Both the position numbers and the translations under genes were made by a program. Positions 4,507 to 46,665 of a DNA stretch of 64,000 nt are shown piece after piece. The DNA is from Octopus vulgaris. Lineage: Eukaryota. Position 1 is the first letter of the stretch, and the number at the start of each line of letters is the position of its first letter. The notes beneath the pieces were generated by a model. The model had not been told where the DNA came from. It saw only the letters and a list, made by a program, of their open reading frames with translations, and did no database searches. The DNA lies in the NCBI GenBank assembly GCA_951406725.2, contig OX597819.1:8742001-8806000 (forward strand), read 5' to 3'.

Positions 4507-4555
4507 TATGGATGTATCTGTACAGATAGACAAACTATATATGCATATGTATATA

Positions 4556-4624
<69 letters not shown>

Positions 4625-4688
4625 AAAATGGAGAGTTTGAACACAGAGAAAATCAATTTATTTGTATAATAGTCAATTTCTTATCGCT

Positions 4689-4771
4689 TACGTACGTTTC
4701 AATTTCTTACCTTCATTCATATTTTGCAATTAAGATTGCATTATGCATTTAAAAGGTATAACTCTCTTCAG
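4689..4771 (-). ncRNA. Hammerhead-like motif, long helix II, degenerate helix I
   Basis: CTGAAGA...GAAA-CGTACG-TA on the minus strand; palindromic helix III ACGTACGT. Confidence 0.55.
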
Positions 4772-4879
4772 GGTAAAAGATTGACAAATATTCGTTCACA
4801 TCCCGATTGATAAAGAGTTGCTTACAGACTGAAATAACAGCATAAATATAATATGTAGGAATAAAGTAATATCAGAGGA

Positions 4880-5210
4880 GCAGGATTACTACTATAAAGG
4901 CTCCACGGAAAATTATATGTAAAGCAGGATAGCCAACCATGAACGCACTTTTGAAGATAAGAGGAAAGAAGTTAGCACTAGTTTTAGGAGTTTATATATG
5001 GGAAATTAAGTACAAAAATAAGAATAAACACTGAAGTGGGAAATAATTAGCAGGGCAAAATCTTATAGCCTTGCATCAAAAGGTGTGACTTATGCGTTAA
5101 GTAAATTTTCTCGGTTATTACATTGAAGCACAAATTAATCGACAATAGAAGAGAAAGAGGTTTTTATAGCCCACATGTGATTAAATATATGTTTAATAAA
5201 TTCAAATAAA
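4880..5210 (+). pseudogene. Degenerate GIY-YIG endonuclease of a PLE
   Basis: With stops and frameshifts: YYYKGSTENYM*SRIANHERTFEDKRKEVSTS...YIWEIK...LKWEIISRAKSYSLASK...CDLC, matching the PLE GIY-YIG pattern. Confidence 0.75.
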
Positions 5211-5711
5211 TAAAAAATTAAATAGACATTATAGAAATAGATCTACGTCTAGTAATTCTCAATAAATATAATTAAGTAGGCATTATGTGTATAATTAAAT
5301 ATCTAGAACTAATAATTCTATATTAATCAAATAGAATACACATGGAAGCCCTTACTTGTAGCGGATGTATCAAAATAAATCATTTAACAATTGTATTAAA
5401 TACATGAGAACTAGAGAACTTATTATATTCATAAGGGAGAAATTATGTATGCGCGTGTGTGTATACAGATATGTATATGTGTATATGCGTGTGTATGTGT
5501 GAGTGTATACCTATATATTTTTATAAACTTTTATCTAGTTATATATAAATAAACACTCCATGAATGATAGAAATTGTAATAAACATAGGCAGTAACCTTA
5601 AAATGAAATGTGCCTCCACCATTTGAAAAAAGTCTAACTCCATGCATGTGATACGTAGTGAATCACACCTCTATTAAATATAAGAATTAATTTAAGTAAA
5701 TATATATATAC

Positions 5712-5783
<72 letters not shown>

Positions 5784-5786
<3 letters not shown>

Positions 5787-5991
5787 CATGTTGATTCGCT
5801 AGCTTCTGTACGCATTTTTTCCTCTCCTTGTTTCTCTCCGTGTTTCTTTTCTGTGTATCTTTCTGTTGAAGAGCGTAGGCTCGAAACGTAAAAGACTTGT
5901 TTTATTTGTATTCCTGAGCGCCATACTAATACAATTGTTTGTTTGTATTCCACCTGCCTTCGTCTTTTGTTTATTTTCATAAAGCTTCCCG

Positions 5992-5992
<1 letters not shown>
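5784..5992 (+). mobile_element. ~210-bp HHR-bearing element flanked on both sides by (TA)n
   Basis: Second copy at 21155-21360; both end in cttcccgt followed by (TA)n. Confidence 0.8.
5858..5895 (+). ncRNA. Minimal type I hammerhead motif, A6U core variant
   Basis: TCTTT-CTGTTGA-A-GAGC(gtag)GCTC-GAAA-CG-TA-AAAGA: 5-bp helix I, 4-bp helix II, ACGT palindrome. Confidence 0.65.
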
Positions 5993-6027
<35 letters not shown>

Positions 6028-6426
6028 CCTGAGCTATCAAAAAATAAGACCAATACATCTAAATAAATAAAGATTATAATAAAAATTGAAATTCTCATAA
6101 CTAAATATGTTAAATAAATATATTGATTTGGATTCCTACGAATTTATATATATATTTTTTTATCCTTTTCACAACTGAATAGAGACAGGAGTTGTAACCG
6201 GTCTTTATGAAACCGATAATAGGAGAATGGTGGTATGACCCCGTCCCCCAGAATTACAACAAGCCATTGTTCACTTTGGTCGTAGTTTAACTTCAACCTA
6301 TTTTTAGAAAGGAATTCAAAAGACACACATACTGACAAACACAAACACAAAAGCATGCTGCTGTCTCAATCTGTAAGCAACTCTCTCTCCATTAGGATAT
6401 GAACGAATATTTGTCAATCTTTCACC

Positions 6427-6509
6427 CTGAAGAGAGTTTTACCTTTTAAATGCATAATGCAATCTTAATTGCAAAATATGAATGAGGGTAAGAAATTGAA
6501 ACGTACGTA
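6427..6509 (+). ncRNA. Hammerhead-like motif, long helix II, degenerate helix I
   Basis: CTGAAGA-gagttttacctt...agggtaagaaatt-GAAA-CGTACG-TA. Confidence 0.55.
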
Positions 6510-6772
6510 AGCGATATGAAATTGACTATTATATAAATAAATTGAATTTTTTTCTGTGTTCAAACTCCCCATTTGCCTTATATTATATTATTAAAATTCT
6601 GTTCTCCTATATTGAATGGATGAAAACATCTATAACGCCAACTAGAACTTCATATGTTTTAACACTAATACTAACACAAAGTAATGAAATGCAAATTATA
6701 TTAATCGATATGGAACTAAATTGGTGTACACTTGGATAAAATACATCCTTAACCACTTTCCATTTGAAACTT

Positions 6773-6962
<190 letters not shown>

Positions 6963-7500
6963 CTATCTATACACATACATACATATTTCTGGAATAATCT
7001 AGAATTGAACGAGGACTATTTATTTGCGGTTCATAATCAAGTGTGGACACAATAGAAAAAGGGTCCTTTAGATACATATATTGTATGTCCGGTGCAACTG
7101 GACTTCTCTTATTCTAGTTCACACTTTGTGCACTATATACCGTAATGGTCACATCATTTCTCGATTATGATATGTCAATTGAATTTATATCTCAAGGGAA
7201 AATTTATTAAACAAAATTCTTAATATACATGCGAATGTCCTCTCAAAATATTATTTTATATTAATCTCTGGTGTAGTTTTGATCGATTGATTTGGCCAAT
7301 TCACTTGGGTCATCTAAAGAATGAATTAGTAGCTTCCTGTGTGATCGATAACTTCCACAATTAAATTAGAATTTAACCAAATTGAATAAACAATGGCCTG
7401 AGTGAATTATACTTGCACACACACACATACACGTATATCTACCAATGGATATAAATATATAAATATATATATATACATGCATATATCGTATATACATATA

Positions 7501-7558
<58 letters not shown>

Positions 7559-7901
7559 GAGTTCAGTTTATGAATTAATGAATTAGTGCATGTTTGTGAG
7601 TTATACTGAAAACACGACTGTGATCAAATTTTATAATTTCTTTATGGATTATTTTATGAAGAATTTTTCCGTCTTCGTTATATGTCCATTATATTTTGTT
7701 TGCCACACTAACGATCTTATATCCATCAATGTTCTTAATCCGTTTCATTGACCCATTTCTGTGTGGTGTAAATGAGAAAGATTTCAATGGTTCTGTTTTC
7801 GCTTGAATAACGTGGATTTAGCAAATTCACCACTGACGCCCAAATCTTTCGGCTATTAATTTCTATAGTTAGCGTATTATGAAAGTGTACCAAGTGTAAC
7901 A

Positions 7902-7963
<62 letters not shown>

Positions 7964-8327
7964 TGTGTCGGTGTGTCTGTGTGTGTCTTGTCTCTGTGTG
8001 TGTGAGTGAATCTATGGAACTCCATACAAAATGGTTGTTATTCTGATGCGACTTTTTCTTTTCAAAGATTTGTAGCTTTCTTGATCTAGGTTGCCTTAGT
8101 TTTCTCAATTGTTACATTATCAGGCTGCTTGATGGATTTAGTCAATGTTGAGGGATATGCAGTCAACGTTAGTCGGAAATGTTATTGATGTTTCTCTGAT
8201 TGATAACTTAGATGGCTTTGGTTTCATCCAATATCGGACCAGGTGATGGTTAACGTAACAGCGCCATCTAGGGAGGTTGTTTAAGTCATGTTTCTAGATA
8301 CCCTGGATCACTTGAGCAAAGAATATT

Positions 8328-8560
8328 TATTTCTTTACTACCCACAAGGGGCTAAACACAGAGGGGACAAACAAGGACAGACATAGGTATTAAGTCGATT
8401 ACAACGACCCCAGTGCGTAACTGGTACCTTTATTTATCGACTTCGAAAGGATGAAAGACAAAGTCGACCTCGGCGGAATTTGAACTCAGAACGTAACGGC
8501 AGACGAAATACCGCTAAGCATTTCGCCCGGCGTGCTAACGTTTCTGCCAGCTCGCCGCCT
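8328..8560 (-). mobile_element. SINE family B with 16-bp TSD
   Basis: tRNA-like head ggcggcgagctggcagaa...gagttcaaattcc, central tttcatcctttcg..gtcgataaa..gtaccag domain. TSD ttgagcaaagaatatt at 8312-8327 and 8561-8576. Confidence 0.9.
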
Positions 8561-9011
8561 TTGAGCAAAGAATATTGTTGACTGAGAGGTATCCAGATGT
8601 TGGTGGTTTGTCGGAATATCCTTTGAATGTTGTAGGGTCTTTTTCCACTTGAATTTTTTTAGGGGGACAACCGTTGATGGTGTTATTTGTGGAACCTCGA
8701 CCACCAGTATTGATTTATGCATTTATTTGAAATCGCCTGCTTGATATTACGAAAAGTGTAACTGAGCAGAGAGGATTTGAATTCGGCATATAATGCGAAA
8801 AACTTTATTCTTTCACTTGACAAAGCTATATAATTTCAGTGGTGGAGAATGAATGTAAAGTTATGACATTCATACATTTCTACACATTGAATATGCATAA
8901 GCGAGGGCGAAACACAATTCGCTGTCAGTTGTTCCGTCGGCTTTATGGCGTCTGCCAATACATACTGTTTAGTAGTATATAATCATACAGTTAGATATAT
9001 GTATGCCAGTT

Positions 9012-9044
<33 letters not shown>

Positions 9045-9806
9045 ATGTATGTATGTATGTATGTATGTATGTATGTATGTATGTATGTATGTATGCATGT
9101 ATGTATGTATGTATGTATGTATGTATGTATGTATGTATGTATGTATATATGTGTATGTGCGTATACATGTATATAGATACACACACAGATGCATATATAT
9201 ATATATATATATATATATGACATACACACATACACACTCACTCGGACACACGCATACACGCATGTGTGTGGGGTTGTGCATATATTGCGTGTAGGCCACT
9301 ATACGCTATGTTTCGTCCCAGAAGGCCTGGCAGCATTTTGAAATTCTCAAAAGAATACCGTCACGTGATTCTATTACCATTATGTTCTATTATTCATTTA
9401 TATATTTTATGTATAAGTAATGATCAGGCCTGCTTTTTACGATGTACATAGCTGTAGCATAACATGGTACTATAGTGTTCATATAATTAATGTTGCTGTT
9501 ATCATATATTATTGTTGATGTTATTATTTTTAAAAGTTTGTCTTCCATTTTAGCCTGCCTCCCATGTGAGTCAGTATATGTATTTTTGTATCCCTGCCTG
9601 CCTTTCTCTATGTATGCATATGTGTGTTTATGTCCCTGGGCCAACATTATATTTAGACATCCACAAACACAAATATAAAACATATACACAGTCAAACACA
9701 ATAACATTCGCACATACACATATATCTTTGAGTGTGCATATACACCCATCCATATGTATGAATATATGTACATAGAAGTATATGTACATACGCGTGTATA
9801 TACATA

Positions 9807-9852
<46 letters not shown>

Positions 9853-9855
<3 letters not shown>

Positions 9856-10076
9856 TTTCTTTCTTTCTTTTCTTTTACTTGTTTCAGTCATTTGACTGCG
9901 GCCATGCTGGAGCACCGCCTTTAGTCGAGCAAATCGACCCCGGGACTTATTCTTTGTAAGCCCAGTACTTATTCTATCGGTTTCTCTTGCCGAACCGCTT
10001 AGTGACGGGGACGTAAACACACCAGCATCGGATGTCAAGCAATGCTAGGGGGACAAACACAGACATACACACACAT

Positions 10077-10112
<36 letters not shown>

Positions 10113-10268
10113 ACATATATACGACAGGCTTCTTTCAGTTTCCGTCTACCAAATCCACTCACAAGGCATTGGTCGGGGCTATAGCAGAAGACACTTGCCC
10201 AAGATGCCACGCAGTGGGACTGAACCCGGAACTATGTGGTTGGTTAGCAAACTACTTACCACACAGCC
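9853..10268 (-). mobile_element. SINE family A
   Basis: Reverse complement of the 2093-2500 family. Confidence 0.9.
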
Positions 10269-11019
10269 AATATACATACATACATACATACATACATACA
10301 TCAGAAATTTTGTATTCGAGTAGATATACGACTGTTAAGTTTAGAACTCCAAGCAGATTTTCAAAATCGATCTGTTTTCTTTATAGTTGTTGATTAACTA
10401 TTATATTGAGTAGCATTACCAGTGCTGAGTTACAGACCAAATGTAAGAAAAACAAGGATAAACCCACGTTCATATGAAGGTTCGTACGTGCATTTCACCA
10501 TAAGGATTCTTTGGAGCATGTGACTGAAACTCTAAATGCGTAGATCAACCACAACGGATTCTCAGGGAAGATTTTACTCCATCAAATTACAGATAACTAC
10601 GACCGCAATATAGAGTCCCCTGGTGATCCGATGTAGTTGAGCATTTATATGCATTTGGAACTTCTATCACAGGCTACAAACAGCCATAATTGTGAAACGC
10701 ATGTAATAACTTGAAAATAAAGTTATGTTCATCTTTGTTTTCACCAGAAACACGTGTGTGTGTGTGTGTATAATTCCAAATTTAAAGGAGTGTAACAGGT
10801 AACATGTAACCTGTATATGTTTCCAATCTTGCTAAAGCTCATTATGGATGTATAACGCAACAACGAACTCTCCTCCGAGTAGCTATGTATGCAAATCGTA
10901 CGATTTGCATACATACATACATACATACATACATACATACATACATACATACATACATACATACATACATACATACATACATACATACATGTGTGTGTGT
11001 ATTAAATAGATTTGTTGTG

Positions 11020-13005
11020 TAAGGCCGGAACAATGCCAGAAGATAAACTACAAAAACAAAACCATAACAAAGTTCTAGTCTTAACCTATATTTCTATATT
11101 TCGAGGCTATGACCCATTCTTCAAGAAATTTGGAAGAACGAAGGGTGGAAAAGGTTGTTGCCCAAAAGTGTGTGGAGGAGACAAACAGGGAAATGAGAAA
11201 GGTATAGATTAATGAAATAACGACATAGAGGACAAGAGTAAAGGAGAACAGGTAGATTTCGCTCTTACTGCTCCGTAAATCTGAAAATAAGGACTTGATC
11301 TGGTATAATGTTTCCTTCAACTGTGCCATATCCATAAACATATATAAGAAATTTATGACAATTTTAGCAAAACTTCTCTGTTTCCCGCAGATATAATAGA
11401 ATTTTTTTCCCGTAAGATAGTTAGTATCTCATATTCTACTCTCCCCAATATGGGTACCATCACAGGCAGGTTAAAGAGAAAGAATAATAAATTAGCAAGA
11501 GATGGTAATGATAATAATGTTACTGTCAACACCAACTTAAACTCCTACAATGTGAATAATAATATTAATGGTGACGTAGAAAATAGAAACAGCGGTAATA
11601 ATGCTTTTAATAATACAATATAGACTGTAGCTCTGAGGTCTATTATATTTGGGAACTGAAGGAAAGCGGAATCGAATTTAGCCTTAAATGGGATATCATA
11701 AGGAAAGAGCAGCCTTATAGAGATAGTCGATACGGGTGTGAACTGTGCTCTCCGAAAGCTTAGGAATCTTTTAGATATAGGGGCAAGAGCAACCTAATTA
11801 ATAATGGATTAGACCAAAGGGTAACATGCGTACATAGGGTCAACCGTACATTTAAATGTTTTCGAAATTAGCGTTTAAAGATGCCATACTTGAAACAGGA
11901 TGAGGGAAATTAATTCTTAGTGTCATATCTGATGTGAACTTACACCCCGGTATTATATATAATAAGTTATATATATTTTCTTACTATTCTCTATAATTTC
12001 TTATTGTTTTGTTTTCTTATTTTGATATATTTACCTATTAACCTCTTATCTCTTATAAGTTATTAATGTTCTTAAAGAGAAATATAAACTATTATAACCT
12101 ACCCATAATAAAGTACAAATATTTGTGTATATTTGCATGTGCGCACATAGTTAAATATGCGGATGTATCTGTGCACAACTTATTTTTCTGATTTTCTGAT
12201 TCTTAGCTTATAACTAATATAAAGATAGCATGATTTATCACCCCAGTATTCCATAAGTAAATACCAAGAGCAATGTTTATAGAAACCACCTTATAAGTAA
12301 ATAATTAAGAATTGGTATAAATATTAAACTAATTCTATGTAATCTAATGTTGAAAATTGGTATATATACACAGTTTATCTATTCTGGTTATAATATCATT
12401 TTTAGTAATCTTAAATTTTATCTTCATACAACATAACAATATTGTTTATATACAATCATCCATAGTAACCCATGATAATTTCCTCTGTATTAACATCATA
12501 GGTTTTATTAGCGTCTTGTCCCCTTAACTATTAATTAACATCTTGATTTGGGGTCTTCCCCTAACCAGCCTCCTTTATAGACAGTTACTTATACAAATCC
12601 TAAAATTCTGACGATATTTATGACCCTGCCCTCCATTCTAAACAGACACTGCCCTCTGGCCTTAGATTTGGCAGTTGATAAAAAAGACTAATAAATTAAA
12701 AATGAACCACAATCCTTCACAAGCTATGACCGTAACAAACTGTATACAGTTCTTAGAAGTGTAGTATATTCTTAGTTACATTAGTAGCAACATGAACTCG
12801 TTCCCTCTTCTTGCACTATTAGAGAATTTAAGTAAAAGTATATCAATGTGTCCAATTGATTAAAAATTCTATTTATTTATGCTGCTGAAGATAGCCCTGC
12901 ATTTAAATGGATGTAATGATTGCATTGTTCAATTAAATGGAGTTACTTGAAACGGTCGTGCTGCATCACCTCTTGATATCCTGCTACTTATTTTGATTAT
13001 ACAAA
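11020..13005 (+). mobile_element. Degenerate Penelope-like element ending in an HHR-bearing pLTR
   Basis: 11295-11490 reads IWYNVSFNCAISINIYKKFMTILAK...RYNRIF...SISYSTLPNMGTI, like the PLE IIWFNPP...VSYSCMPN linker. The 3' end (gatatcc...ttattttgattata) is homologous to 24900-25020. Confidence 0.65.
12879..12966 (+). ncRNA. Hammerhead motif, long helix II, probably inactive (G at position 17)
   Basis: ATGCTG-CTGAAGA-...-GAAA-CGGTCG-TG-CTGCAT. Confidence 0.6.
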
Positions 13006-13020
13006 TACATACATATGTAC

Positions 13021-13091
<71 letters not shown>

Positions 13092-13513
13092 TTGACAAAG
13101 GCTGCAAATCAACACCAACATTGTTTGAAACACGAGTCACACGAACAGAGCATTTCCTGTTCAACAGAGCATTTTCTATTCACTGACAAGGGAGACAGCC
13201 TCCCCCACAGCAAGCAAGGGCGTCATATCGGCCGGATGATTAAAGATAGAATTAATCCTCATTGGTGACGCTACTGCATTGCCGGTGGGTAAGCTAAATC
13301 GACTTGACAGCTTGTAGAATATACCATAGGAATCAGTGGCTAATTCAGTAAAATGGTAAAGTGAAAATTATAAAATGATTGCACCCTTAGTCACTTGTAT
13401 GACCATTTTATTTGTGTCCTTTGGTTTTCAATTGCGTCTTGCCATTTTAATCATTTTATATATATATACATACATATTTTATCAAATGCACACACGCATA
13501 CAAACACGCACAC

Positions 13514-13576
<63 letters not shown>

Positions 13577-13631
13577 CGGAGATGTACTCGCATAGCAAGT
13601 AATTTGATCTGAGATCGTGTGCTGAAACGAA

Positions 13632-13904
13632 AACAATTGCAGCGTAGAAGGTGTTTATAAGCCATTTAAGAAACACACAAAAGCCGTTCGATTCACTCCA
13701 ACATTTAAGTTTAATTTGTCAAAATATTTTCGTCGCTAAAATCCGCGACCTGTTCACTGACAAAGCACGGACTTTGTCAGTGAACAGGTCGCGGATTTTA
13801 GCGACGAAAATATTTTGACAAATTAAACTTAAATGTTGGAGTGAATCGAACGGCTTTTGTGTGTTTCTTAAATGGCTTATAAACACCTTCCACGCTGCAA
13901 TTGT

Positions 13905-13905
<1 letters not shown>
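13632..13905. repeat. 274-bp near-perfect palindrome between (TA)n arrays
   Basis: 134-bp arms, spacer cacgga at 13766-13771, one mismatch seen. Confidence 0.95.
13773..13822 (+). ncRNA. Type I hammerhead with G3-C8 core variant (mirror copy on - at 13715-13764)
   Basis: TTTGTCA-GTGAACA-G-GTCGC(ggatttta)GCGAC-GAAA-ATAT-TT-TGACAAA. Confidence 0.75.
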
Positions 13906-13976
<71 letters not shown>

Positions 13977-14024
13977 CATACATACATACATACATACATA
14001 CATACATACATACATAGACAGAGC

Positions 14025-14074
<50 letters not shown>

Positions 14075-16436
14075 TATACACGTACACAACATAGTTTTAT
14101 ATCTTTATTGAAAATGTAAAAATATGCTATAAATTTCTGATGACTAATTTTCTTCCAGCCAGATATTAATTGCAATAAGGATAGAACCTTTCCTTGCAGT
14201 TAAAATACCACTAAAACACCTGTCTTTACTCTTCCGATTATAATACACATAAACAACAGGCTGCACTGGGTAATTTTAAAATGAACTGAGCCATCAAATG
14301 TGTATATAGTCACTCCGCTTATTAGACTTTACAATGAATTGTCATCATTTTGTTGGTGGCAGAATATTAGAATATTAGCTTGAGATAGATATCAGTACTT
14401 CTAGTGAATCATTAGCGTCAGAGTAATTACTATGCAGTGAATATTCAAACACTCTATTGACTGGACGCTTAATCATACAGCTAAACTATAACAACAATAA
14501 CGTCTATGGCCAATTGGCACTGGAAAGCAATAGCTCTCTTGGGAAAAACCGAAATTAACAAATGTCAAACCATGTTCCTACTGAGATGAGCATCCGATTC
14601 GGTAGTAACTTCTTAGTAACTGTTAGTGGCGTGTGCTTTGTATAATTACAATAAACGTTTACTTAATTAGGTAGAAAATCTTCGACAAGCTAAGCTAAGC
14701 GCAGAGCCCATGGGTCACGAATGCAATATCAACAGCAAGATACGATCCTGCAAACATGGGAGATTAGAGTGAGATACCGTATTCACTTGAATCATGGTTC
14801 TCTCTGTATATATATAATGTATCCTTTCCACTTCATATAGTTTAGATAATAATTTGTGGCGCAAATTTAGTAAATGTTATAATAGGTAGGAATGAGATTG
14901 CATGGCATTCATATAGCTCTCTTCCAAACATACCATCAACAGTACTCTCCAGCGGCCCGTTTTAAGTTGGATCAATACATGAATACATTATCCTGCTTAT
15001 TACTCCACCAAATAATGCTCCGTTAATTTGATCATAATACAACATTTGTGTTACAAGTTAAATACTTGTTATCAGAATAACCATTCCAAATGTTAGTTCA
15101 TAATAAAATTGTGTGTAAAGGTAGAGATGAAGACTTCCGCTATCAAATCTCTTCAGTCCAGCGGTGATATTTATTTTCTTGGAACTAAAAGAGTGAATAC
15201 TTAAATCAACTTTGAGAGCACTCTAATTAGGGTTAGTATTGCACCACAGTGTAGTAAATAAAACATTCCAGTACTCTAGGAATCAGCAACACTTTATGTA
15301 ATAACCCAGTATATTTTTTAAAAAATTAATTTCGAATGAAATCAAATAGTACAAAGATTTAGTACATCCATACACTGATTGTCCATAAATTATCTTTATA
15401 ACTTCCACAACTCATTGTATTCTATCGTCTAGATGTGTTGCATGCAACCAATAAAGTTCACATAGATATATTCTGACATTTCTAATAAAACTTGGTTTAT
15501 CAATAAACTTTGCTGAGTTTTATTTTTCCTTTTTTCTAAATTTTTCAAATAGTAAAGGTAATTTATGGACACCCTGTATAATTTGGTTTTTGTTAAACAA
15601 GTCATTATTGTCCCATTATAGCTGCATATGATTTTCATAGGTTGATTCATCCGCTCTTTGAACACCATGTATATCAGAATGACTGTGAGAATTTGATTTG
15701 TCCTGTAAGCGTCTACATATCGTTGTACAAAATTTGTTGTATAATGGAAGACTGAATCTAAGTCACTGGGTTAGAACACATAGAAATCATTCGGGCTACT
15801 ACCTTAAATGTCACCAGAGAGCGAGATCTTAGATTTTCAGCATTCATTCATGCATCCACCAGAATGTGTCGAACTGCTTGACGATCAGAAATAAGTATCT
15901 ATGTTTCTTGCGACTGTGTATTTCTCTATGTGCATTTTATCCGTCTGCTTATGTACATGCCTGTTAGTGATTTGCTGACTGCCTGTCGTTGAATGGAATT
16001 TTGTAGCTATATATTTCTATGGTGGTTTGCGCTTCAGTGTACAGTCTAATCTTTGTTAAATGTTATAACAGAAATTGTAATTTGGCTTATGTGTTTCTAT
16101 GAGTGTGATTTGTGTCTGCGCCTTAGTTTCTGTATATGTATATTTATTACTTCGTTCGGCTGGTATATTACCTGTAGCCATCTCTTTTTTGCCTGGACTC
16201 CGTCTCCCTTCACTCGAATTTGAACTTTTGTTATCTGGTCTGGTATGAGCCTTTGTTGCCTACATCTATTATACGCCCCTCATTTTCATGTATTCTTACA
16301 AAGTATACTTACACACACACACTCACACACATACACATATTTATATGCATATACATACACATACATGCATACATATAACGATGCGTATATACATGTACAT
16401 ATCTATGCAAACATATGTGTTTGTGTATGATTGCGA

Positions 16437-16548
<112 letters not shown>

Positions 16549-16711
16549 GTATATATAAGAATGTATAAAATATTTTTATACACAAAGAGGAAACCATTGA
16601 CCGGACTCCTTACATGCTAAAAAGGCCAGTTAAAACCCCAAACCACGAAAAAGAGAATTCATGAGGCACGCCGTTATAACACTAGAACGAACAAAAATAT
16701 GAATTAGTTAA

Positions 16712-16779
16712 TCCCGAACTCGAGTTTCGCTATTAATTACCAAATAAATTCATTTCGAATCTGTAGCTCATCAGCGGAA
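16712..16779 (-). ncRNA. Canonical type I hammerhead ribozyme
   Basis: TTCCG-CTGATGA-GCTA(31 nt)TAGC-GAAA-CTCGAG-TT-CGGGA; palindromic helix III ACTCGAGT; the element runs into the (TA)n array at ~16437-16535. Confidence 0.85.
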
Positions 16780-16974
16780 ACGCTAATTATTGAATAATTA
16801 TGTATAAATAAAAAATTCGAAATAAGAACGTAACGAACGACAATAACAACATATGGACAGGTAGACGATACAAACACCTTGATGCACCCACCCTCTTTGC
16901 AATATACTTTGTTGTTGTGTTGCCACATGCTTTTCAAAACTCTCAGGAGGGTATTTACATAAAATATCGAACAA

Positions 16975-17324
16975 TAGGAAGAATGGAATAAGATCACCCA
17001 GCAAGAAATTGAAAATTTAATTTCCTCATGCAGTCGAAGATGTCAGAGTGTGATTGAAGCTAAAGGGCTTCACACTAAATATTAAATAATTCCAGTATTC
17101 TCTGTCATTTTTGATTATTTTGTTATTTTTTCAACCGTTCTGATCATTTTGGCCGCCATGGGTTTTGCAATAAATCACTAAATCATCCATAACTTTTGTA
17201 TTATCCTCTCAAATTACACCAAATTCTCAGACAATAACAATTATAGAATATAAAACAACTTTGATAAAAACTTATAATTACTTTTCTTACGAAAATAATG
17301 CCGTTCTGAACATTTTGGCCGCAA

Positions 17325-17327
<3 letters not shown>
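16975..17327 (+). mobile_element. Tc1-like transposon 3' end
   Basis: EWNKITQQEIENLISSCSRRCQSVIEAKGLHTKY*; repeated gttctga.cattttggccgc motif (IR/DR-type TIR); terminus ...caactg|TA. Confidence 0.8.
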
Positions 17328-17370
<43 letters not shown>

Positions 17371-17499
17371 ATGTGTGTGTGTATGTGTGAGTGTGTGTGT
17401 GTGTGTGTGTTTGTATATATGTATATATATACATATATACATATGTATATGTAAATATATATATGTATGTATATATGTATATATATATATATTTATATA

Positions 17500-17575
<76 letters not shown>

Positions 17576-17618
17576 CCATATATATATATATATACATATA
17601 TACATACATAGATACATA

Positions 17619-17649
<31 letters not shown>

Positions 17650-18349
17650 TCTTTTGTCTGCATATGCATGCGTGTTCATTGACATATTAAATTGTGCTTG
17701 TCTGAAATTAAGAAATTACAAGTTTCAAGCAACTTAGAATGTGGAGAAGGCTTCAGTGGAATGTCCTTATGTCTCTTGTAACCCATATCAAATACAGACT
17801 TTGGAAATTTATTCTACCGCAAACGTTTTCTCATTTTTGAATTGAATGAAAATTAAATAACAGCAGTAAACAAAGGACACGAATTACTTGGAGATGTTAA
17901 AAAATATATACGAGGCAATAATGATCTAGAAAACAAAAATTTCAATAATTAAGCTAAGAAACAGCAAAAGAAGAGATAGAACTATAGATGAAATTTGAAT
18001 AAAGAATAGTGATAATAAATATACAATTCCACCAGAGAGGAATTTAGCGCGAAAATGGCAGGAATAAATCAATGAGCAGACGACAGCTCAAAAGATATCA
18101 ACAATAGACATTGTAGAGTAAGGACAACTGTAATTTGTTAATTGAGACCCAGAGTTCAGCGTCGATTAAATTAACCCTCTTAAAACTGCTTGAAATTCTT
18201 TGTACTGAATATTCGATAACAAGATTCTGTTGCAAAAATAATTTGATAGATGTATTTCTTCTGGGAGAACATATGAGAATGTCTGGAATCTTTACGTTCG
18301 TAGAAAAAAAGCCTATCAATACACACACACTCACACACACACACACACA

Positions 18350-18439
<90 letters not shown>

Positions 18440-18784
18440 CTGGAAATATATGTATAGCCATATACATACAAAATCAATTTCTTAGCATGCGTATTTATAT
18501 TTTTGTAAACGGGACAATCAAGAAAATTCTTTGTGATGTTTGTTCAAATACTATCAGGTTCTACTTTTAATTTTCTTCCATCTTGGTCGGTGTGATGAAT
18601 GTTAGAATTGGCCTGAGGTGCTTCAAATGCTTATGTGAAGTGTTTGACTTTCTGCAAGAGCAGTTAGATATTCATATATTTTAAATATTATAGCAAAATA
18701 TGTGGATTTAATAATTTGCGATATTTTCAACATCATAAATACCCACAGTAGGAATATATGTAGCAATTAGAAAATAATAACAGT

Positions 18785-18960
18785 AGTAACGTTTATATGC
18801 CAATAGAACATGGCAGTCCTATAAAGGACGATGTTACTGTTGCTATAGCCCCAAGAAAAAGACCTTTTCCAGCTGGCTATCAACACACAGTTTGTGTCCG
18901 TATGGCATTCGCAAGCCTTACGTGTTATTCACAGACCTGGGTTTCTAGGTGGTTACCTAT
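18785..18960 (-). mobile_element. Dispersed repeat, probably the 3' end of a non-LTR retroelement
   Basis: Homologous to 62100-62240 (inverted) and 36105-36250; shared ccagctggctat and tagcccca motifs. Confidence 0.5.
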
Positions 18961-19504
18961 CTTCAGTGTGAGATAATCACAGATTAGTGACAAAAGCTTT
19001 CTCCACTTGCAGATGCTATATACTTTTTAAGCGACGCACAGTCGCTGGTCTCGTATAGAGAAAAACAACTTGTTTTAAATCTCTGAGTGAGTGAGTGAGG
19101 GATATACAGTAAGAGTACGAAAGTCAACTATCGTTGTTCGTTATCCGAGCACGCCAGAAAGATAACATCGGATGTCACTGCAATACCACACTTAATCAGC
19201 AACAATATAGGCTCTGCTGGCAATGGATGGTAGTATAGTAGCTACCTTGCCACATAGAATGTTTATAGACATTTCAATGATACCGGTTCATTTAAAGTTA
19301 CTGCCACTCATTTAAATGACAACTTTATTATACTGGAACATTGATTAGGTAATAAAATGTCAGATATTTTCATATGTAGCATAGTTTCAGTTTACTAATG
19401 GAAAAAGAAAACGCATATATGTTATATGTAATATATTATAATATTTTAAGATATGATGAAAACAATACGATATGCATTAGAGAGGAACATCATGACAGCA
19501 GATA

Positions 19505-19898
19505 TCTTTATATATAAAAGTGAGGTTGTGTGCTGTCTGTCTCCTACGATTTAGATTCCTAACTACTCCCACATTTTGCGGTGCAGTTTAACCAAAACCG
19601 GGTATCTTATAGTCGTGATTCATATCGAGCCCTTCTGGGTATTAGCGCGCGTCTACGATGAGTCTACGATTTTTAAAAAATTTACCATCAATTTTTCCCA
19701 TTTTTAATGCATTTTTGGCATATATAAGGGAAGTAACTCTCTAAAAATTTATTATTAAATCTCAGAACGTAAAAAGCTACAGTAATCCCCCCCTTTGTGG
19801 TTAGCCATATTGAGACGGCTATTATACTTTACATCTCTAAAAATGCTTATATAGTTATTTCCCTTACAAACTCGAGCAACGCCGGGCGATACTGCTAG
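19505..19898 (+). mobile_element. Non-autonomous Helitron, family H1
   Basis: A|TC start, subterminal hairpin ctcgagcaacgccggg, CTAG|T end; five copies in the window. Confidence 0.88.
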
Positions 19899-19916
19899 TA
19901 TATTATAAAGGCACAG

Positions 19917-20130
19917 ATGCACATGATCATGCCACCCAGCACAAACATATACTGCCTAGACAGAAAAATTTATACTATTGTTGATGATGTAGGTACCGTG
20001 AACAAACGACGCGCAGAACTGAAAGGAATTCTCCACAAGCAAAACTGTCTACCTCTACTTATAGAGAGTGACATTATGCAACATGCAAAACAAGTACTTA
20101 AGAACAAATTAGTACAACTCAAGAAAGAGA
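19917..20130 (+). pseudogene. PLE RT-thumb remnant
   Basis: NIYCLDRKIYTIVDDVGTVNKRRAELKGILHKQNCLPLLIE aligns to NIPFNLAKRICTIVSNANTRDTRLQELKDTLITRNYPPSLID of the 28-kb PLE. Confidence 0.65.
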
Positions 20131-20384
20131 AACACAAGACCAGAATATCACACCTTTTATAGGGAAACAATTCAATTTCAATGTCTTGTGTTATTTGTCC
20201 TCTACTCTTTTATATTTTTGTTGTTTAAGAAAAATTTCCAGTTCCTTGGGTTTGTGTCTCTGTTTTCATTTCTCAGTGTACGACGTTTTTTTTTGGTGTC
20301 CTGTACTCATATATGCGTGTATATATACATGTAGAGGTAGGTACGTACATATATGTATATATATATATGCATATGTTTTATTTG

Positions 20385-20464
<80 letters not shown>

Positions 20465-21154
20465 TATATATATATGTATGTATAAACATATATATACATA
20501 TCTATATATATAGGTATATACGTATGTGTGTATGTATGTATGCATGTGTGATTGTTTGTCTGTGCATGTGAGTGTGGTGGTGGTGGTGGCGTTTAGTGTG
20601 GATACATATATAAACATTTCTTCTACTTAACATCGAATCTGCTTAATATCAGTAAACAAATATGCCAAAAGCTGTATTTGATAGAAAACAAATTCCATAT
20701 TGTTTATGTAACCCATAACAACACAAATGATTCATAATGAAATTTGGCGTAATATATTTCTTAGGTTGTTCGATTCTATGTTATTCTAGATAATACCTCG
20801 CGGATTTGTGCAAGTCGACTATTTTTGTAGTAACACACGATGCATCTGTTATACACCCATCACAATGCCAATTGCAATTTATGTACATTTATCTCCACCT
20901 CTCAGACTTAATTGACAGTTTTACTCTGCACGGTGTCTATGCTTCTGTCTCTCATGTGCCCTCTCTCTTCGTCTACCATGTAGATATATATATGTGTGTT
21001 TGTGTGTGTGTATGTGCGCGTGTGAGAGAGAGACTGTGTGTGTGTGTTTGTATGTATGTACGTATGTATGTGGGGTTTATATAATATATAGGCATATTTA
21101 TGTGTGTATAGTCCCTCTAGCGTCTAGCGTCTGACCTCTGCCTGAAGTCAGAAC

Positions 21155-24425: not shown

Positions 24426-24532
24426 AAAGAGAGGATAAATGCATTTTCAGAAGGAAAAATTACATTTATCGCTCGACTTTTCACATACTAAATCAAAACT
24501 GAAAGTCGTCTGTTGCTAGAGAAAGAGTCGTT

Positions 24533-24606
24533 CCTTATTTACTGTGGTTAACCCCGACTCAACCCGGGACCTACATATATATATATATATATATATACAT
24601 ATGTAA

Positions 24607-24664
<58 letters not shown>

Positions 24665-25017
24665 TGATAGATAGATTCAGATGAATATAGTATTTAAGTT
24701 AAAGGCACCAGTATTTGGTATGGTATTATCCATATAAATCAAATGGGGTGATTATAATCAAAATAAGCAACAACAATATCCAAGTACAATTGTTTCATGC
24801 TACTTCCTTTTATTAAACACTGTATTATATCAATTTTAAAATGTCGAGCATAAATAAGTATAAAAATGTATGTTGTCCATTTAATTAACAAAATCTATAT
24901 GTGGCTGAAGATTGCTCGACATTTTAAAACTGATGTAATACATACAGTGGTTAATAAAATGAAGTAGCATGAAACTATTGTACTACACTACCTTGGATAT
25001 CCTTGTTGCTTATTTTG

Positions 25018-25059
<42 letters not shown>

Positions 25060-25681
25060 GTGTAGGAAGAAATGGAGCTGAACGAAGATTTAACAAAATT
25101 CCTTTTTATTATTTTCTACATATGGGACTTTGCAGCCTTTGAAACATATGTAGAAAATATTAAAAAGGAATTTTGTTAAATCTTCGTTCAGCTCCATTTC
25201 TTCCTACACTAAATATATAAACTTCAAATTTCCGCACTAAGGCACGGGTTTGAGACCCCATGGTCGTAACCTCAACCGTGATTTTTCTGTTGTGATTTTT
25301 GCTACCCAGGTATCGGTTATATTTTGAATAATCCGTAACAAGATAATTCATTTATCCATTTCAATATATATATTTATTGAAATGGATAAATGAATTATCT
25401 TGTTACGGATTATTCAATAGATAACCGATACCTGGGTAGCAAAAATCACAACAGAAAAATCACGGTTGAGGTTACGACCATGGGGTCTCAAACCCGTGCC
25501 TTAGTGCGGAAATTTGAAGTTTATATATTTAGTGTAGGAAGAAATGGAGCTGAACGAAGATTTAACAAAATTCCTTTTTAATATTTTCTACATATGTTTC
25601 AAAGGCTGCAAAGTCCCATATGTAGAAAATAATAAAAAGGAATTTTCTTAAATCTTCGTTCAGCTCCATTTCTTCCTACAC

Positions 25682-25741
<60 letters not shown>

Positions 25742-26104
25742 CAAAATAAGCAACAAGGATATCCAAGGTAGTGTAGTACAATAGTTTCATGCTACTTCAT
25801 TTTATTAACCACTGTAAGTATTACATCAGTTTTAAAATGTCGAGCAATCTTCAGCCACATATAGATTTTGTTAATTAAATGGACAACGTACATTTTTATA
25901 CTTATTTATGCTCGACATTTTAAAATTGATATAATACAGTGTTTAATAAAAGGAAGTAGCATGAAACAATTGTACTTGGATATCCTTGTTGCTTATTTTG
26001 ATTATAATCACCCCATTTGATTTATATGGATAATACCATACCAAATACTGGTGCCTTTAACTTAAATACTATATTCATCTGAATCTATCTATCAAATCTA
26101 TTTA

Positions 26105-26164
<60 letters not shown>

Positions 26165-26169
26165 TTTAC

Positions 26170-26212
<43 letters not shown>

Positions 26213-26251
26213 GGTCCCGGGTTGAGTCGGGGTTAACCACAGTAAATAAGG
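24533..26251. repeat. ~1.7-kb palindrome with nested inverted repeats
   Basis: ccttatttactgtggttaacccc... at 24533 mirrors ...ggggttaaccacagtaaataagg ending at 26251; centre ~25370. ORFs 25160-25351(-) and 25390-25581(+) are near-identical. Confidence 0.95.
24900..24987 (+). ncRNA. Type I hammerhead, long helix II (mirror copy on - at 25772-25859)
   Basis: TGTGG-CTGAAGA-tTGCT...AGCAt-GAAA-CTATTG-TA-CTACA; a sister partial copy has palindromic CAATTG. Confidence 0.75.
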
Positions 26252-26357
26252 TACTCAATACATAAAGCAGAGTAAATTATATATATATATATATATATAT
26301 ATACACAAAACCGGAGTGGTAAATATACTGGTGGCATTTGGTAAAGCTATCGAATAT

Positions 26358-26421
26358 AGCGCCGATGACGGAATTCAAACTAATTTTTTCTATGTTTGCG
26401 ATCCAGAAACACGTGTTCGCT
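26358..26421 (+). ncRNA. Type I hammerhead, U4C variant, inside a 28-bp inverted repeat
   Basis: AGCG-CCGATGA-cGGA..caaac..gtttg..TCCa-GAAA-CACGTG-TT-CGCT; flanking IR 26301-26328 / 26445-26472. Confidence 0.7.
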
Positions 26422-26728
26422 CTTAACGGTAAGTGACTGATTTCGTATATTTACCACTCCGGTTTTGTGTATGTGAGCCGTAAGGGCCTTCGTTTTTGGA
26501 ATCTCCACTTATAGAAAATGGAAAAAACGGTCTTTGACTGCCATTTCTAATTCCTTCGGTATGAGGCGAAACAGCCTGCTGCTAGCCATCTTATTTTTTC
26601 TTTACTATATACTGAACCTTACAAAGGTCCTGACAATTAATTTGTCGTATTTACATACCGAAATTTACCGGTAAATAATTGTTGGTTACATGAAAAACCA
26701 CAGGAAAATTATTTACCATTTTTATTGC

Positions 26729-26797
<69 letters not shown>

Positions 26798-26802
26798 GTA
26801 AA

Positions 26803-27195
<393 letters not shown>

Positions 27196-28076: not shown

Positions 28077-29123
28077 TTAATTGTTTGTCGTAGACCCGTT
28101 AAGAAGTGGCTTGTATTTTGTAATAAAGAGATTTTCTTTACTTATTCTTTGTCTCGAGGTTGTATCGTCCCTAAATTGGTAGAGGGGGAAAATTCTGAAG
28201 TTTGGTGTTTTTTTGTTGGCGCAAGTATCTATGTGTTGGCTAAAAGCTATTTTTCTGTTTTGGGGAATTTTTATCTGGGATCTGTGCAGGGCCATTCGTT
28301 TACGCAAACCATTTTTTGTTTGGCCTATGTACTGCTCTTGACACCCGGAGCAGGTTAGTGTGTATATTAGGTTCTCCGAAGCACATGTGAAGTTGCTTTT
28401 CACTGTAAACCGTTGTCCCTGTTTGAAGGAGAACTCAGAACCCTCGATTAGATAGTCGCATATCCCGCAATTGGGTCTTCCACATTTTTTTACTGTCGGC
28501 TTCTGTGTTGAAGAGTGAATTCGGGCTTGTGTAAGGAGACTTTTCATGGATCTAGGCTGTCTTTTGCTTTTTATGATCGTGTGTGTTTGGAGGATTGTGT
28601 TCATTCTGTGGTCTTTTTTTAGGAGGGGTATGTTGTGGAGGATGGTGTCGAAGGCTTCGTTATTGAGAGGGTTGTGTGTGGAGATGTATGGTAAGGCTTT
28701 TGGTTGTAAGTTTTTCTTTGATTTGGGATGTCTCAGTTCCTTGATGTTAAGTTGAAGGGCACGTTGAATGCACTTGTCAATAAGTGAAGGTGGATAGTTC
28801 CTGGTGATTAGGGTATCTTTTAGTTCTTGTAGTCGTGTGTCTCTGGTGTTTGCGTTAGAGACTATAGTGCATATCCTTTTTGCTAGATTGAAGGGGATAT
28901 TCATCCTGGTGTGTCTGGGGTGGCATGAATTGAATGGAAGATATTGCTTAGAGTCTGTAGGCTTATAGTATATGTCTGTTTCTATTATATTATTAGCTTT
29001 CTTAATGAGGATATCGAGGAAGGGGAGTTGTTGTTGGCTATATTCCATCGTGAATTGGATGTTTACGTCCAGTCCGTTTAAAATTTTCTGGAATTCTATG
29101 AGTTTTTCTATATTTTTATGCCA
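28077..29123 (-). CDS. PLE reverse transcriptase C-terminus/thumb plus GIY-YIG endonuclease (truncated but uninterrupted)
   Basis: WHKNIEKLIEFQKILNGLDVNIQFTME..LPFLD..YYKPTD..YL..SCHP; CGRPNCGIC; NLIY..C..C..YIGQT..R...H; E..FI..LN. Confidence 0.9.
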   Translation of the reverse strand, partial: WHKNIEKLIEFQKILNGLDVNIQFTMEYSQQQLPFLDILIKKANNIIETDIYYKPTDSKQYLPFNSCHPRHTRMNIPFNLAKRICTIVSNANTRDTRLQELKDTLITRNYPPSLIDKCIQRALQLNIKELRHPKSKKNLQPKALPYISTHNPLNNEAFDTILHNIPLLKKDHRMNTILQTHTIIKSKRQPRSMKSLLTQARIHSSTQKPTVKKCGRPNCGICDYLIEGSEFSFKQGQRFTVKSNFTCASENLIYTLTCSGCQEQYIGQTKNGLRKRMALHRSQIKIPQNRKIAFSQHIDTCANKKTPNFRIFPLYQFRDDTTSRQRISKENLFITKYKPLLNGSTTNN

Positions 29124-29237
29124 TATATATATATATATTTATATATATATATATATATATATATACAAAAGGAGGCAGAGAATATTAAGAAAATCGATAT
29201 CAAAATACGAAATTATTAAGACACAGACAGACACATC

Positions 29238-40574: not shown

Positions 40575-40584
<10 letters not shown>

Positions 40585-40901
40585 TATTAGAGACAAAACC
40601 ACTATTTTGCAAAACAAACAAGGAAAGACTTAATCAATACATAAAATTTTAATAAATAGTCAAAAAAACCGCCACTACAATCGTTTCTTGTCTTGATCGA
40701 CAATCTTCAGGTGGACTTCCAATAAGTCAGTTTCAAATTATGAAACTGACTTATTGGAAGTCCACCTGAAGATTGTCGATCAAGACAAGAAACGATTGTA
40801 GTGGCGGTTTTTTTGACTATTTATTAAAATTTTATGTATTGATTAAGTCTTTCCTTGTTTGTTTTGCAAAATAGTGGTTTTGTCTCTAATAATATTTTAT
40901 A
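40575..40901. repeat. ~325-bp palindrome between (TA)n arrays
   Basis: ~160-bp arms around spacer aatta (40736-40740); the right arm continues to (TA)n at ~40985. Confidence 0.95.
40762..40804 (+). ncRNA. Canonical type I hammerhead (mirror copy on - at 40672-40714)
   Basis: CCAC-CTGAAGA-TTGTC(gatcaa)GACAA-GAAA-CGATTG-TA-GTGG. Confidence 0.88.
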
Positions 40902-43990: not shown

Positions 43991-44965
43991 TGGGTCTTCC
44001 GGAAAGTTTATGCCGATTTTTAAAGGAAAGAAAGAGGTCAATAAATACTTGCCATTACATTTTTAATCAACCAAATATGAACCATTTTGTTGCACAATGC
44101 GTCTCCATCTTTACTTAAGCTTGAAAATACTCTTTTCCTAGAATTGAGGTGGTTTCATGACAAAGAATTCATCAAGGTATCTTTTTACGTCATCCAAGGA
44201 ATTAAAATTTTTACCGTTAAGACTATGCTGCAGAGGCTTGAATAAGTGGAAATCCGAAGAAGCAATATTTGGTGAATACGGAGAGTGGGGTAACACATCC
44301 CAGCCGAGCTGCAGCAATTTTTGTCTGGTTCCCAAAGAAACGTGCGGTCTTACATTATCATGTTGGAATACAACATCCTTCCTGTCGGCCAATTCTGGAC
44401 GTTTCTCTTGAATTGCTGCTTTTAACTCGTCCAGTTGTATGCAGTATTTCTCAGAATTAATTGTCTAGTTACTTCGGAGAAGCTCAGAGTACAGAATTCC
44501 TTTCCAATCCCACCAGACACAAAGCAAGACATTTTTAGGGTGAAGAGCCACTTTTGCGGTGGCTAAGGGTGGCTCATGTTGTTTACTCCAGGATCGCTTT
44601 CTCTAGATAATCCATCACCTGTCACAATTTGCTTTAAAAAAGGTGCATTTTCATTCCGTTTATAAAGAGAATCACAGATGGAAATGCGATCCAAAAGGTT
44701 CTTCTCATTCAACTCATGTGGTACCCAAACATCGTAGCAATTTGTGTACCCAAGCTTTACCAGGTGCTCATGAACGACGGATGTTGATTGGTTGAGGCTT
44801 TCTGCCAATTCTTGGGTTATGCAATGTAGGTTATTCTCAATTAATGACTTGATTTGGTCATCATCTGTAGTGGATGGCCTGTCTGATCGCTCTTTATCAA
44901 AATGGCTACAATCTCCAGCTTTGAACCTTGCGAACCACTTACGTACTGTACTTTCGGATAAAGAA
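43990..44965 (-). mobile_element. Mariner transposase pseudogene with right TIR
   Basis: WVPHEL, IVTGD, HDNVRPH, PHSPYSPNIASSDFHLF (DD34D mariner); frameshifted. Confidence 0.92.
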
Positions 44966-46043
44966 ACAAATAATATATATGTATATATATAATATATATA
45001 TATTTAATAAATTTAATAAATTATGTGATTGGGTATTATCTGATAGTTGATCATTGATTAAGATGTGTTTCTCCATTTTCTTATTTTGTATATATATACA
45101 TATATATTTACGTGTGATATATATATACATTTACCTGTGTGTGTTGTATATATCTCTTATTATAAAAGGCAGATTTTATCTGCCTCCCTTTGGGAGTTAT
45201 AGAAATCTACAATATAGGATTTCTTCAATTACAATTTACCTAGCATTTTTAAGAGTACAATGCATCGCGTCATGCCAGGTCCAGTTTTTAAAATTTAAAC
45301 TCCAATTAAGCAAAATTTACAGAAAACTCACATTCTGGTGTGTGTGTCAAATGCTTTTCTTAGTCTGGTTTACACCACACGCAAACGCACACATACAGTG
45401 TGCAACGAATAAAGTGAAACTAGATGTAATATTTGTTTCTGTCTATGACGCTGATAGATACATGAGTAAAATGTATGGGAAGCTAACACATAAGAGTGAG
45501 TTAAAATGTTCTTGGAAGAGAGTAAATAGCGACAGAGAGTGATTTGAGGAGGACTTTACATTAAATAACCGTAGTGGCTTGTGTTAGTAATAAAGTAAAC
45601 ATACACTCATACATACATACATACATACATACATACATACATACATACATACATACATACATACATACATACACACACATACATACACACACACACACAT
45701 ACATACACACACACATACATACATACACACATACATACATACATACATATACATACATACACACACACACACATACACACACACACAGTATTGAAGCTTG
45801 AGAACAATCAGATACATTTGCAACACATCTGTTGAAAATATTATTGTTCACACACATACATATACATATATACATACAGACAGACAGACAGACAGACAGA
45901 CAGATAGACACACACACACACACACACACACATGATACAGCATGGCCACAACCTCAAGGCTGAAACATATAAAAGAATAACAGAATATAAATGTGTGCAT
46001 GTGTGTGTGAGAGAGAGTGTGTGTGTATATGTATGTATGTATG

Positions 46044-46089: not shown

Positions 46090-46665
46090 TCAACAGCTTG
46101 AACTAAAAGTCAGAGGGGAATGGGATAAACCACTTATATTAACTTGCTATAAAAGCAGGTAGTAATTTTATCTTGTCTTTATTCATAGTGTAAGTTTTGA
46201 AGAGTGCATTTCGATTTTAACAGCTATTTTTTTCAAAGCTATATTGGAAGTAACAAAGGAGCATATTTGGCATATTTTGCTTTATGAGTTCAATAAAGAC
46301 AACAACGCAACAGAAAGTACAAGAAATATTAATGCAGTATATGGGGATTGGACAATAAGCGTAAGGCAGTGTCAATGGTGGTTCCAGAAATTCCGAGCCA
46401 TAAACTACAGCCTAGAAGACGAGCCTCATCCTGAAAGATCTGTAGAACTCGACAAGGACATCCTGAAAACCCTGGTGGAACAAAATCTCATCGTAACTGT
46501 TGAGGAACTAGCAGAGAAGCTTGGATTTGGTCATTCAACCATTCATTGAGACCTGTGTGCTATCGGAAAAGTCAGCAAATTGGGTCAATGGGTTCCTCAC
46601 GAACTTTCCGAGTCTAATTGCATGCAGAGAGTGAATGTATGCTTTTCTTTGCTGTCACATCTCAC
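46090..46665 (+). mobile_element. Mariner 5' half
   Basis: EVTKEHIWHILLYEF...WWFQKFR...LEDEPH...WVPHEL; ends next to a Helitron. Confidence 0.88.

Follow-up and report, generated by a model that had tools for sequence, protein, structure and literature searches.

Structure of the palindrome

The window analysed here is a 64,000-nucleotide stretch of the Octopus vulgaris genome (assembly GCA_951406725.2, contig OX597819.1; G000:C6:8742001-8806000 in the genome searched, which comprises 2.8 Gb in 227 contigs). An inverted repeat of 1.7 kb, with arms at 24533-25366 and 25375-26251, is present in the assembly sequence (Table 1). The alignment of these arms in inverted orientation confirmed the 1.7-kb palindrome reported in a first-pass annotation of the window, together with its three TA-separated modules per arm: T (24533-24574), A0 plus A (24662-25020) and B plus C (25056-25366). 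On the left arm, T is oriented +, A is oriented - and B-C is oriented +. The GC content of the palindrome is 0.285-0.349.

Table 1. Features of the palindrome and its right-hand neighbourhood (window coordinates).
Feature	Position	Strand	Remarks
Left arm	24533-25366	+	Probably the derived copy; left end inside module T
Module T, cut copy	24533-24574	+	42 nt of the 70-nt tail of family 3
Interrupted (AT)n tract	24575-24661		Without the ATGC interruption seen in the right arm and the third copy
Module A: tail A0 and tail-bearing arm	24662-24850	-	Private 9-nt and 4-nt deletions
Tail A0	~24662-24752	-	Outer end decayed into GATA repeats
Module A, tail-less inverted arm (family 1)	24851-25020	+	Inner fold-back alignment
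Type I minimal hammerhead motif	24900-24987	+	Descriptor match
(TA)18 linking A and B	25020-25056		Right-arm counterpart (TA)27
Module B (family 2 segment, inverted and tail-less)	25056-25124	-	Inner fold-back alignment
Family 2 sense segment	25125-25366	+	Hammerhead 3' half, pLTR end and ~150-nt tail C
Centre	25367-25374		8-nt TA-rich loop, directly 3' of both C tails
Right arm	25375-26251	-	Probably the original stack; runs outward into the full T tail
Mirror hammerhead motif	25772-25859	-	Descriptor match
Complete T tail	26208-26278	-	TA on either side; first 42 nt alone mirrored
Element X (fourth dispersed family)	26300-26735	+	Own 28-nt inverted end
Older mirror	26733-27195	+	TA tract, A0 and 178 nt of A
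ORF fragment, C-terminal GIY-YIG	28077-29138	-	Pfam E 1.4e-4; score 22.5 bits, cut-off 22.6

The arm alignment contains 12 substitutions in total, of which seven fall in complex sequence, three in TA or GATA tracts, one at the centre and one beyond the repeat. The seven substitutions over 702 non-microsatellite bases correspond to a divergence of 1.0%. The TA/GATA tracts also vary between the arms and are shorter on the left at all three places concerned, which agrees with the few substitutions and TA-tract length changes noted previously. When the central 8 nt are read as loop-free, one T/T mismatch remains, 4 nt off the axis. This centre is far shorter than the TA that follows other family tails (median 47 nt, range 10-372, n = 28). 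The outer end of the left arm adjoins single-copy DNA and has no TA tract, and no source copy of the left flank (24432-24535) was found elsewhere in the genome.

Two of the modules are themselves fold-backs, as had been claimed. Fold-back A (24753-24850 against 24912-25023) aligns with 91 matches, seven substitutions and two deletions in the left arm, and with 93 matches, five substitutions (5/98, about 5%) and two deletions in its right-arm copy. Fold-back B pairs 25056-25124 with 25145-25213 at 68 of 69 positions (1.4% apart), its arm extending beyond the 25056-25108 previously given, and the single difference (1/69) is common to both outer arms. B and C are one insertion, of which C is the tail.

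Repeat families of the modules

The genome search yielded 2763 candidates for the A0+A family (family 1), the best other copy being 86% identical among the 40 scored, 2297 for the B+C family (family 2), with copies of up to 99%, and 43 for the T family (family 3), with up to 97% across the full 73-nt query. Among the fetched loci listed, each family stands alone and is bounded by TA tracts, and insertion into (TA)n was seen in the flanks of families 1, 2 and 3. All three families are arranged alike: one arm is inverted and tail-less, the other is direct, and a tail (A0, C or T) is present on one side only. Copies of the T family elsewhere carry a fold-back, and T at the locus is the tail alone. 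Judged from sequence, the modules are likely the ends of three dispersed TA-flanked families of Penelope-like elements; the layout, the TA flanks and the motifs found in families A and B-C bear out the earlier description of the parts as Penelope-like, hammerhead-bearing ends.

As in the insertions described for EN+ Penelope-like elements, the inner modules combine a direct arm and its tail with an inverted arm that has none, and they share the microsatellite target and the hammerhead within the repeat (PMC8557442, PMC3846280). The tails are 70-150 nt long here, in contrast to the 30-40 nt of the EN+ elements published in these sources. The inner fold-backs are ordinary inverted Penelope insertions. 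In a sample of 28 family A copies, ranked by similarity to the locus copy, arm lengths varied and turn points were copy-specific; the tail-less arm was longer in 20 copies, the tail-bearing arm in five, and the two were equal in three. Of 30 B-C loci, 15 show the fold-back, with spans of 141-858 nt. Since the turn points differ from copy to copy, the fold-backs arise at each insertion. The tail-less arm of module A holds about 60 nt that are absent from the tail-bearing arm. Plain snap-back cannot explain module A, because these nucleotides are missing from what would be the template arm, and two starts at two fixed points fit better. In agreement with such a two-start reading, two reverse transcription start sites have been reported for a lizard Penelope element (PMC11167929).

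Only three of the 91 picked loci combine two of the four families, and none combines three. The A-B junction pattern, the range of which excludes the longer TA of the right arm, has a single match in the genome, at the locus itself. At locus L042, two subfamilies at 81% identity lie together; reading them as the mirror of one copy was rejected in favour of independent insertion. On G000:C27, loci L070 and L079, 335 kb apart, contain complex insertions of the T family that are nearly identical and have long mirrored arms rich in microsatellites; they are possibly a segmental duplication. A partial and decayed copy of family A is also present in the window itself (12836-13025).

An ORF lies upstream of family 2, on the same strand, in locus L050. 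Its homologue in L051 gave a weak Pfam match to GIY-YIG (E 0.088), and the L050 ORF itself gave none, so that family 2 may be weakly tied to a coding element. The ORF otherwise resembles what we take to be a Penelope endonuclease. In both loci (L050:1-861; L051:1891-2667), a long asparagine-rich stretch precedes the GIY-YIG-like end. For families A and T, no linked ORF was found within the 3-kb loci. An open frame at L027:340-903(-) resembles what is presumably a MAM-domain exon of a host gene. The asparagine-rich stretch of the family 2 ORF is similar to the N-rich inserts that belong to rotifer Penelope elements (PMC3846280).

Hammerhead motifs

Complete hammerhead motifs at 24900(+) and 25772(-), proposed in the first-pass annotation, were recovered with a type I descriptor, which gave five matches in the window and one across 20 shuffled 64-kb windows. 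The wider description of the palindrome as built from ribozyme modules held in part: there is one full motif per arm, but B has the 3' half only, and T and C have none. Elsewhere in the window, a 99% fold-back (40579-40897) carries one motif per arm (descriptor matches 40715- and 40761+), and another motif was detected at 18971(-). Of the fetched loci, 17 of 27 for family A and 14 of 28 for B-C had a descriptor match close to the module. No T or X locus had one, and these two families are assigned to the Penelope-like elements by layout alone.

The 24900(+) motif comprises CUGAAGA (24905-11), a long stem II, GAAA (24971-74) and a 2-bp stem III, with the cut predicted after GUA 24982. It shares the CUGANGA/GAAA/GUA core, the 5-bp stem I and the tiny stem III of the minimal type I hammerheads described from metazoan Penelope-like elements, as well as, family-wide, their near-palindromic stem III loop (PMC4209133). 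According to the same source, these hammerheads typically have G10.1-C11.1 and a palindromic loop III, and cleave poorly even as dimers. The locus motif differs from them (PMC4209133) in four respects: G10.1-C11.1 is replaced by U-U, as in most family copies; about 50 nt are inserted in stem II; loop III is TATT and not palindromic, the family having AATT or GATT; and a tandem partner with which to form a dimer is missing. A non-LTR retrozyme was rejected as an identity for the locus, because there are no tandem direct monomers and the two motifs lie on opposite strands.

The constrained hammerhead fold (-15.3 kcal/mol) is within 0.1 of the local minimum (free fold, -15.4 kcal/mol), and free folding of 24890-25000 was no better than that of shuffled sequences (z -1.36). 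The entire module A forms a hairpin of -116 kcal/mol that occupies stem II, GAAA and the cut site (the 3' half of the core). Pairing within the hairpin of module A is accordingly predicted to sequester the hammerhead. Rfam returned no hammerhead family, either at the gathering score or at E up to 10; at the latter threshold, only hairpin-shaped models of miRNAs and the like appeared, all under their own cut-offs.

Older mirror and relative ages

To the right of the palindrome lies an older mirror. Of 265 bases compared with the right arm, 14 differ (5.3%), and the mirror has the turn point, the deletions and the TA interruption of A in common with that arm. It is a tail-to-tail mirror; T and element X later split its centre, the family of X having 1126 candidates with other copies 94-98% identical. 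The private 23-nt turn of A occurs exactly three times in the genome, all at the locus. A 134-nt contig of run X3, which carries a different organism label, crosses this turn with four differences; these four letters are not assignable to one arm, and family copies swamp arm-specific alleles in the contigs.

Divergence is thus layered: 5/98 plus two deletions within A, 14/265 for the older mirror, 1/69 within B and 7/702 between the outer arms. These layers and the presence of A's turn in the X3 contig suggest that A was resident long before B-C, which makes a single chained run of reverse transcription untenable. Between the outer arms, derived changes comprise four events on the left (24774-5, 24871, 24942 and 25321) and two on the right (25418 and 25647), an asymmetry that is not significant. 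No A-to-G change was found among the five derived bases of the left arm. Since T is complete on the right, whereas on the left it breaks off after 42 nt, the left arm is likely the new copy.

The ORF fragment at 28077-29138 is a Penelope-like neighbour of the palindrome with no demonstrated tie to its modules, and the L050 ORF of family 2 gave no alignment with the window ORF. A second Penelope-like ORF fragment with a GIY-YIG end lies at 49410-49786(-) and is 47% identical to the first over their common part. The window also contains transposase fragments of Mariner/Mos1 type (127-689, 44141-45003 and 46166-46546).

TA-centred mirrors elsewhere in the genome

Fold-backs were surveyed in 1.4 Mb, sampled as 140 segments of 10 kb, each at a round coordinate. 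This sample contained 92 fold-backs, of which 12 had at least 95% identity, and none combined at least 95% identity with 500 complex bases, indicating that the present locus is large for its identity. Four mirrors of at least 80% identity were centred on a microsatellite (L128, L186, L196 and L214). Inverted flanks were found at four of 721 TA tracts and at none of 815 other tracts (0/315 CA/TG and 0/500 remaining) in the same 1.4 Mb. The enrichment in TA is marginal (one-sided Fisher's exact test worked by hand: P about 0.05). Two candidates, L109 and L110, were dropped from this count as old inverted SINE pairs (67-68%, under the 80% cut-off).

The mirror at L186:7753-8294 (G000:C2:130.0 Mb) is also a palindrome of palindromes, in which a fold-back element is mirrored about (TA)25 on its head side, with arms identical except for two indels. 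Since this mirror is at the head-side TA, a tail is not required. The other three (L128:6729-7282, L196:4173-4424 and L214:1167-1323) are near-perfect TA-centred mirrors with complex arms of 65-134 nt; L128 and L214, which have TA at the outer end too, may be ordinary inverted insertions. Among the fetched loci, a T-family end at L148 (G000:C28:15364738) forms a tail-to-tail mirror with 147-nt arms at 98%, and L076:1264-1783 is a T-family palindrome in which the copied part (92%) takes in the tail, the TA and some 130 nt of flanking sequence. Tail-to-tail A patterns at L149 and L150 were set aside as uninformative, because only 18-19 nt are mirrored. In the window itself, a further fold-back at 98% lies at 13633-13904.

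Origin of the palindrome

The locus is probably a stack of three Penelope-like ends accumulated in TA tracts, which was later mirrored once by DNA fold-back or template switching at (TA)n. A, with its usual inverted tail-less arm, would have inserted first. A and its TA tract were then mirrored once rightward, giving the copy at 26733-27195 that is now 5.3% diverged. T, X and B-C would have inserted later into TA tracts, as suggested by their 94-99% identity to their families. Finally, a 3' end in the TA past tail C would have folded back or jumped to the opposite strand and copied about 840 nt through C, B, A and 42 nt of T before rejoining the left flank. The product of this last step is what the assembly contains, and its trigger may have been a break or a slip of the replication fork.

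The complete T on the right and cut T on the left, the layered ages and the lone A-B junction favour the later copying of an existing stack. The DNA route is further favoured, each time weakly, by the head-side mirror L186, the absence of TA at the left end and the absence of A-to-G changes. As in fold-back inverted duplication, the locus presents an adjacent inverted copy of pre-existing DNA at a self-complementary seed. On the other hand, two points speak against a DNA route: the centre coincides exactly with the tail of a retroelement, and the older mirror, too, is tail-to-tail.

Among known systems, the adjacent inverted copy, the short self-complementary seed and the abrupt far end are features that the locus shares with fold-back inverted duplication and ODIRA (PMC3907307, PMC10766183). 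Short-range template switching likewise shows an adjacent inverted copy at a short seed, and the length of about 840 nt here is between the short switches and the large duplications described in human (PMC5453318, PMC3907307). Unlike the fold-back duplications cited, the seed is (TA)n and a terminal deletion is not evident here (PMC3907307). The near-perfect arms of several hundred bases and the AT-rich centre are also reminiscent of human palindromic AT-rich repeats (PATRRs; PMC1851657, PMC7999016). PATRRs, as described in these sources, have more than 90% AT and a symmetric centre, whereas the locus has about 28-35% GC, an 8-nt loop and retroelement ends. With this GC content (0.285-0.349) and central loop, the locus was not classed as a PATRR. 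A MITE or foldback DNA transposon was also rejected as an identity for the 1.7 kb, because the left end lies inside T, no target-site duplication was seen and the composite is single-copy. The component parts and both processes, Penelope insertion and mirroring, are of known kinds.

A less likely route, starting from the same pre-existing stack, involves a Penelope reverse transcriptase. A read-through RNA transcribed leftward (T-A-B-C), with (UA)n at its end, would have annealed to, or primed itself at, the nicked TA beside its own tail and been copied in place tail-to-tail, stopping in T in the manner of a 5' truncation. Such a route would account for a centre at the tail of the youngest family. 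Self-priming on a sense template would yield tail-to-tail repeats, as predicted for Penelope (PMC3846280), and a Penelope protein has been reported to cut AT-rich DNA on both strands and to start reverse transcription inside the RNA (PMC11167929). Both mirrors at the locus and that of L148 are indeed tail-to-tail. The usual Penelope inversion, in contrast, is described as head-to-head within one element, and the outer mirror is tail-to-tail over three families (PMC8557442, PMC3846280). A tail-to-tail C (within 30 nt) was found at one locus, the present one, compared with 539 exact tail matches, which counts against this route. The left end without TA and the head-side turn of L186 also count against it, as does the lack of A-to-G changes in the derived bases, although the RNA would contain two long hairpins. 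Pfam searches of 125 of the 209 candidate frames gave no host gene domain, only mariner-type transposase pieces, which again does not favour a read-through RNA.

An assembly artefact, whether from a chimeric fold-back read or from the inverted joining of two haplotypes, seems improbable. The outer flanks of the two arms are unlike each other, and the arms differ at seven sites with the ancestral letter on either side. Moreover, the left junction (24532/24533) lies inside a 155-nt contig of run X1 with 0 mismatches at a depth of 63.8; this contig has 29 letters on the T side, two fewer than the bridging rule asks for, and the source sample may itself be X1. In favour of an artefact, the junction with contig support is the left one, the X1 contigs leave locus-specific parts of A uncovered in several bins, and all four sampled TA-centred mirrors are near-perfect, as a systematic artefact of TA tracts could also make them. 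Contigs of X2, X3 and X4 showed no empty allele and leave 24448-24525 uncovered, and those of X1, X2 and X4 have gaps in module A; these gaps were not taken as evidence.

The model of the first-pass annotation, in which one reverse transcription run chains three RNAs by snap-back and template jumps and then copies the product back, is very unlikely: every module is Penelope-like in layout, and self-priming and template jumps have been proposed for Penelope (PMC3846280), but the modules stand alone elsewhere, differ in age and orientation and have a TA tract at each join, A alone has an older local duplicate and has its junction in another organism label (X3), and the composite has no second copy. 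What survives of that model is the copy-back itself, the outer palindrome being one copy-back, though its production by a reverse transcriptase from its own chained product is not supported.

Implications

The cruciform extrusion once suggested for the locus is doubtful. At physiological salt, a human PATRR22 construct carrying a 9-nt spacer failed to extrude (PMC1851657), and the centre of the present palindrome is similarly interrupted. The locus is probably inert debris, and only transcription would let it form hairpins or long dsRNA. Among the public runs, no RNA run containing the locus was listed. As a lone locus of retroelement debris it carries little weight. It nevertheless cleanly records both the layering of insertions and two mirror duplications, and it is the largest example that we found of a possibly recurrent TA-seeded mirroring.

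The locus also points to a genome-wide TA-centred mirroring, which is testable and distinct from ordinary Penelope fold-backs. In the literature searched, mostly non-subscription papers, we found no description of such mirroring in this group. Extrapolation of the four mirrors per 1.4 Mb gives about 8,000 genome-wide (Poisson range 2,200-20,500). We propose, tentatively, that (TA)n tracts targeted by Penelope-like elements might act as recurrent fold-back seeds that mirror their neighbours and have produced thousands of young, near-perfect palindromes. If so, the locus would record two successive TA-seeded mirror events. If a reverse transcriptase were responsible, the TA-centred mirrors would be the tail-to-tail self-priming products predicted in 2013. 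In octopus, the proportion of loci capable of forming long dsRNA has been reported to be exceptionally high (PMC5625713), and TA-centred palindromes are candidate sources of it. By either route, such mirrors would contribute further long dsRNA as a substrate for cephalopod hyper-editing.
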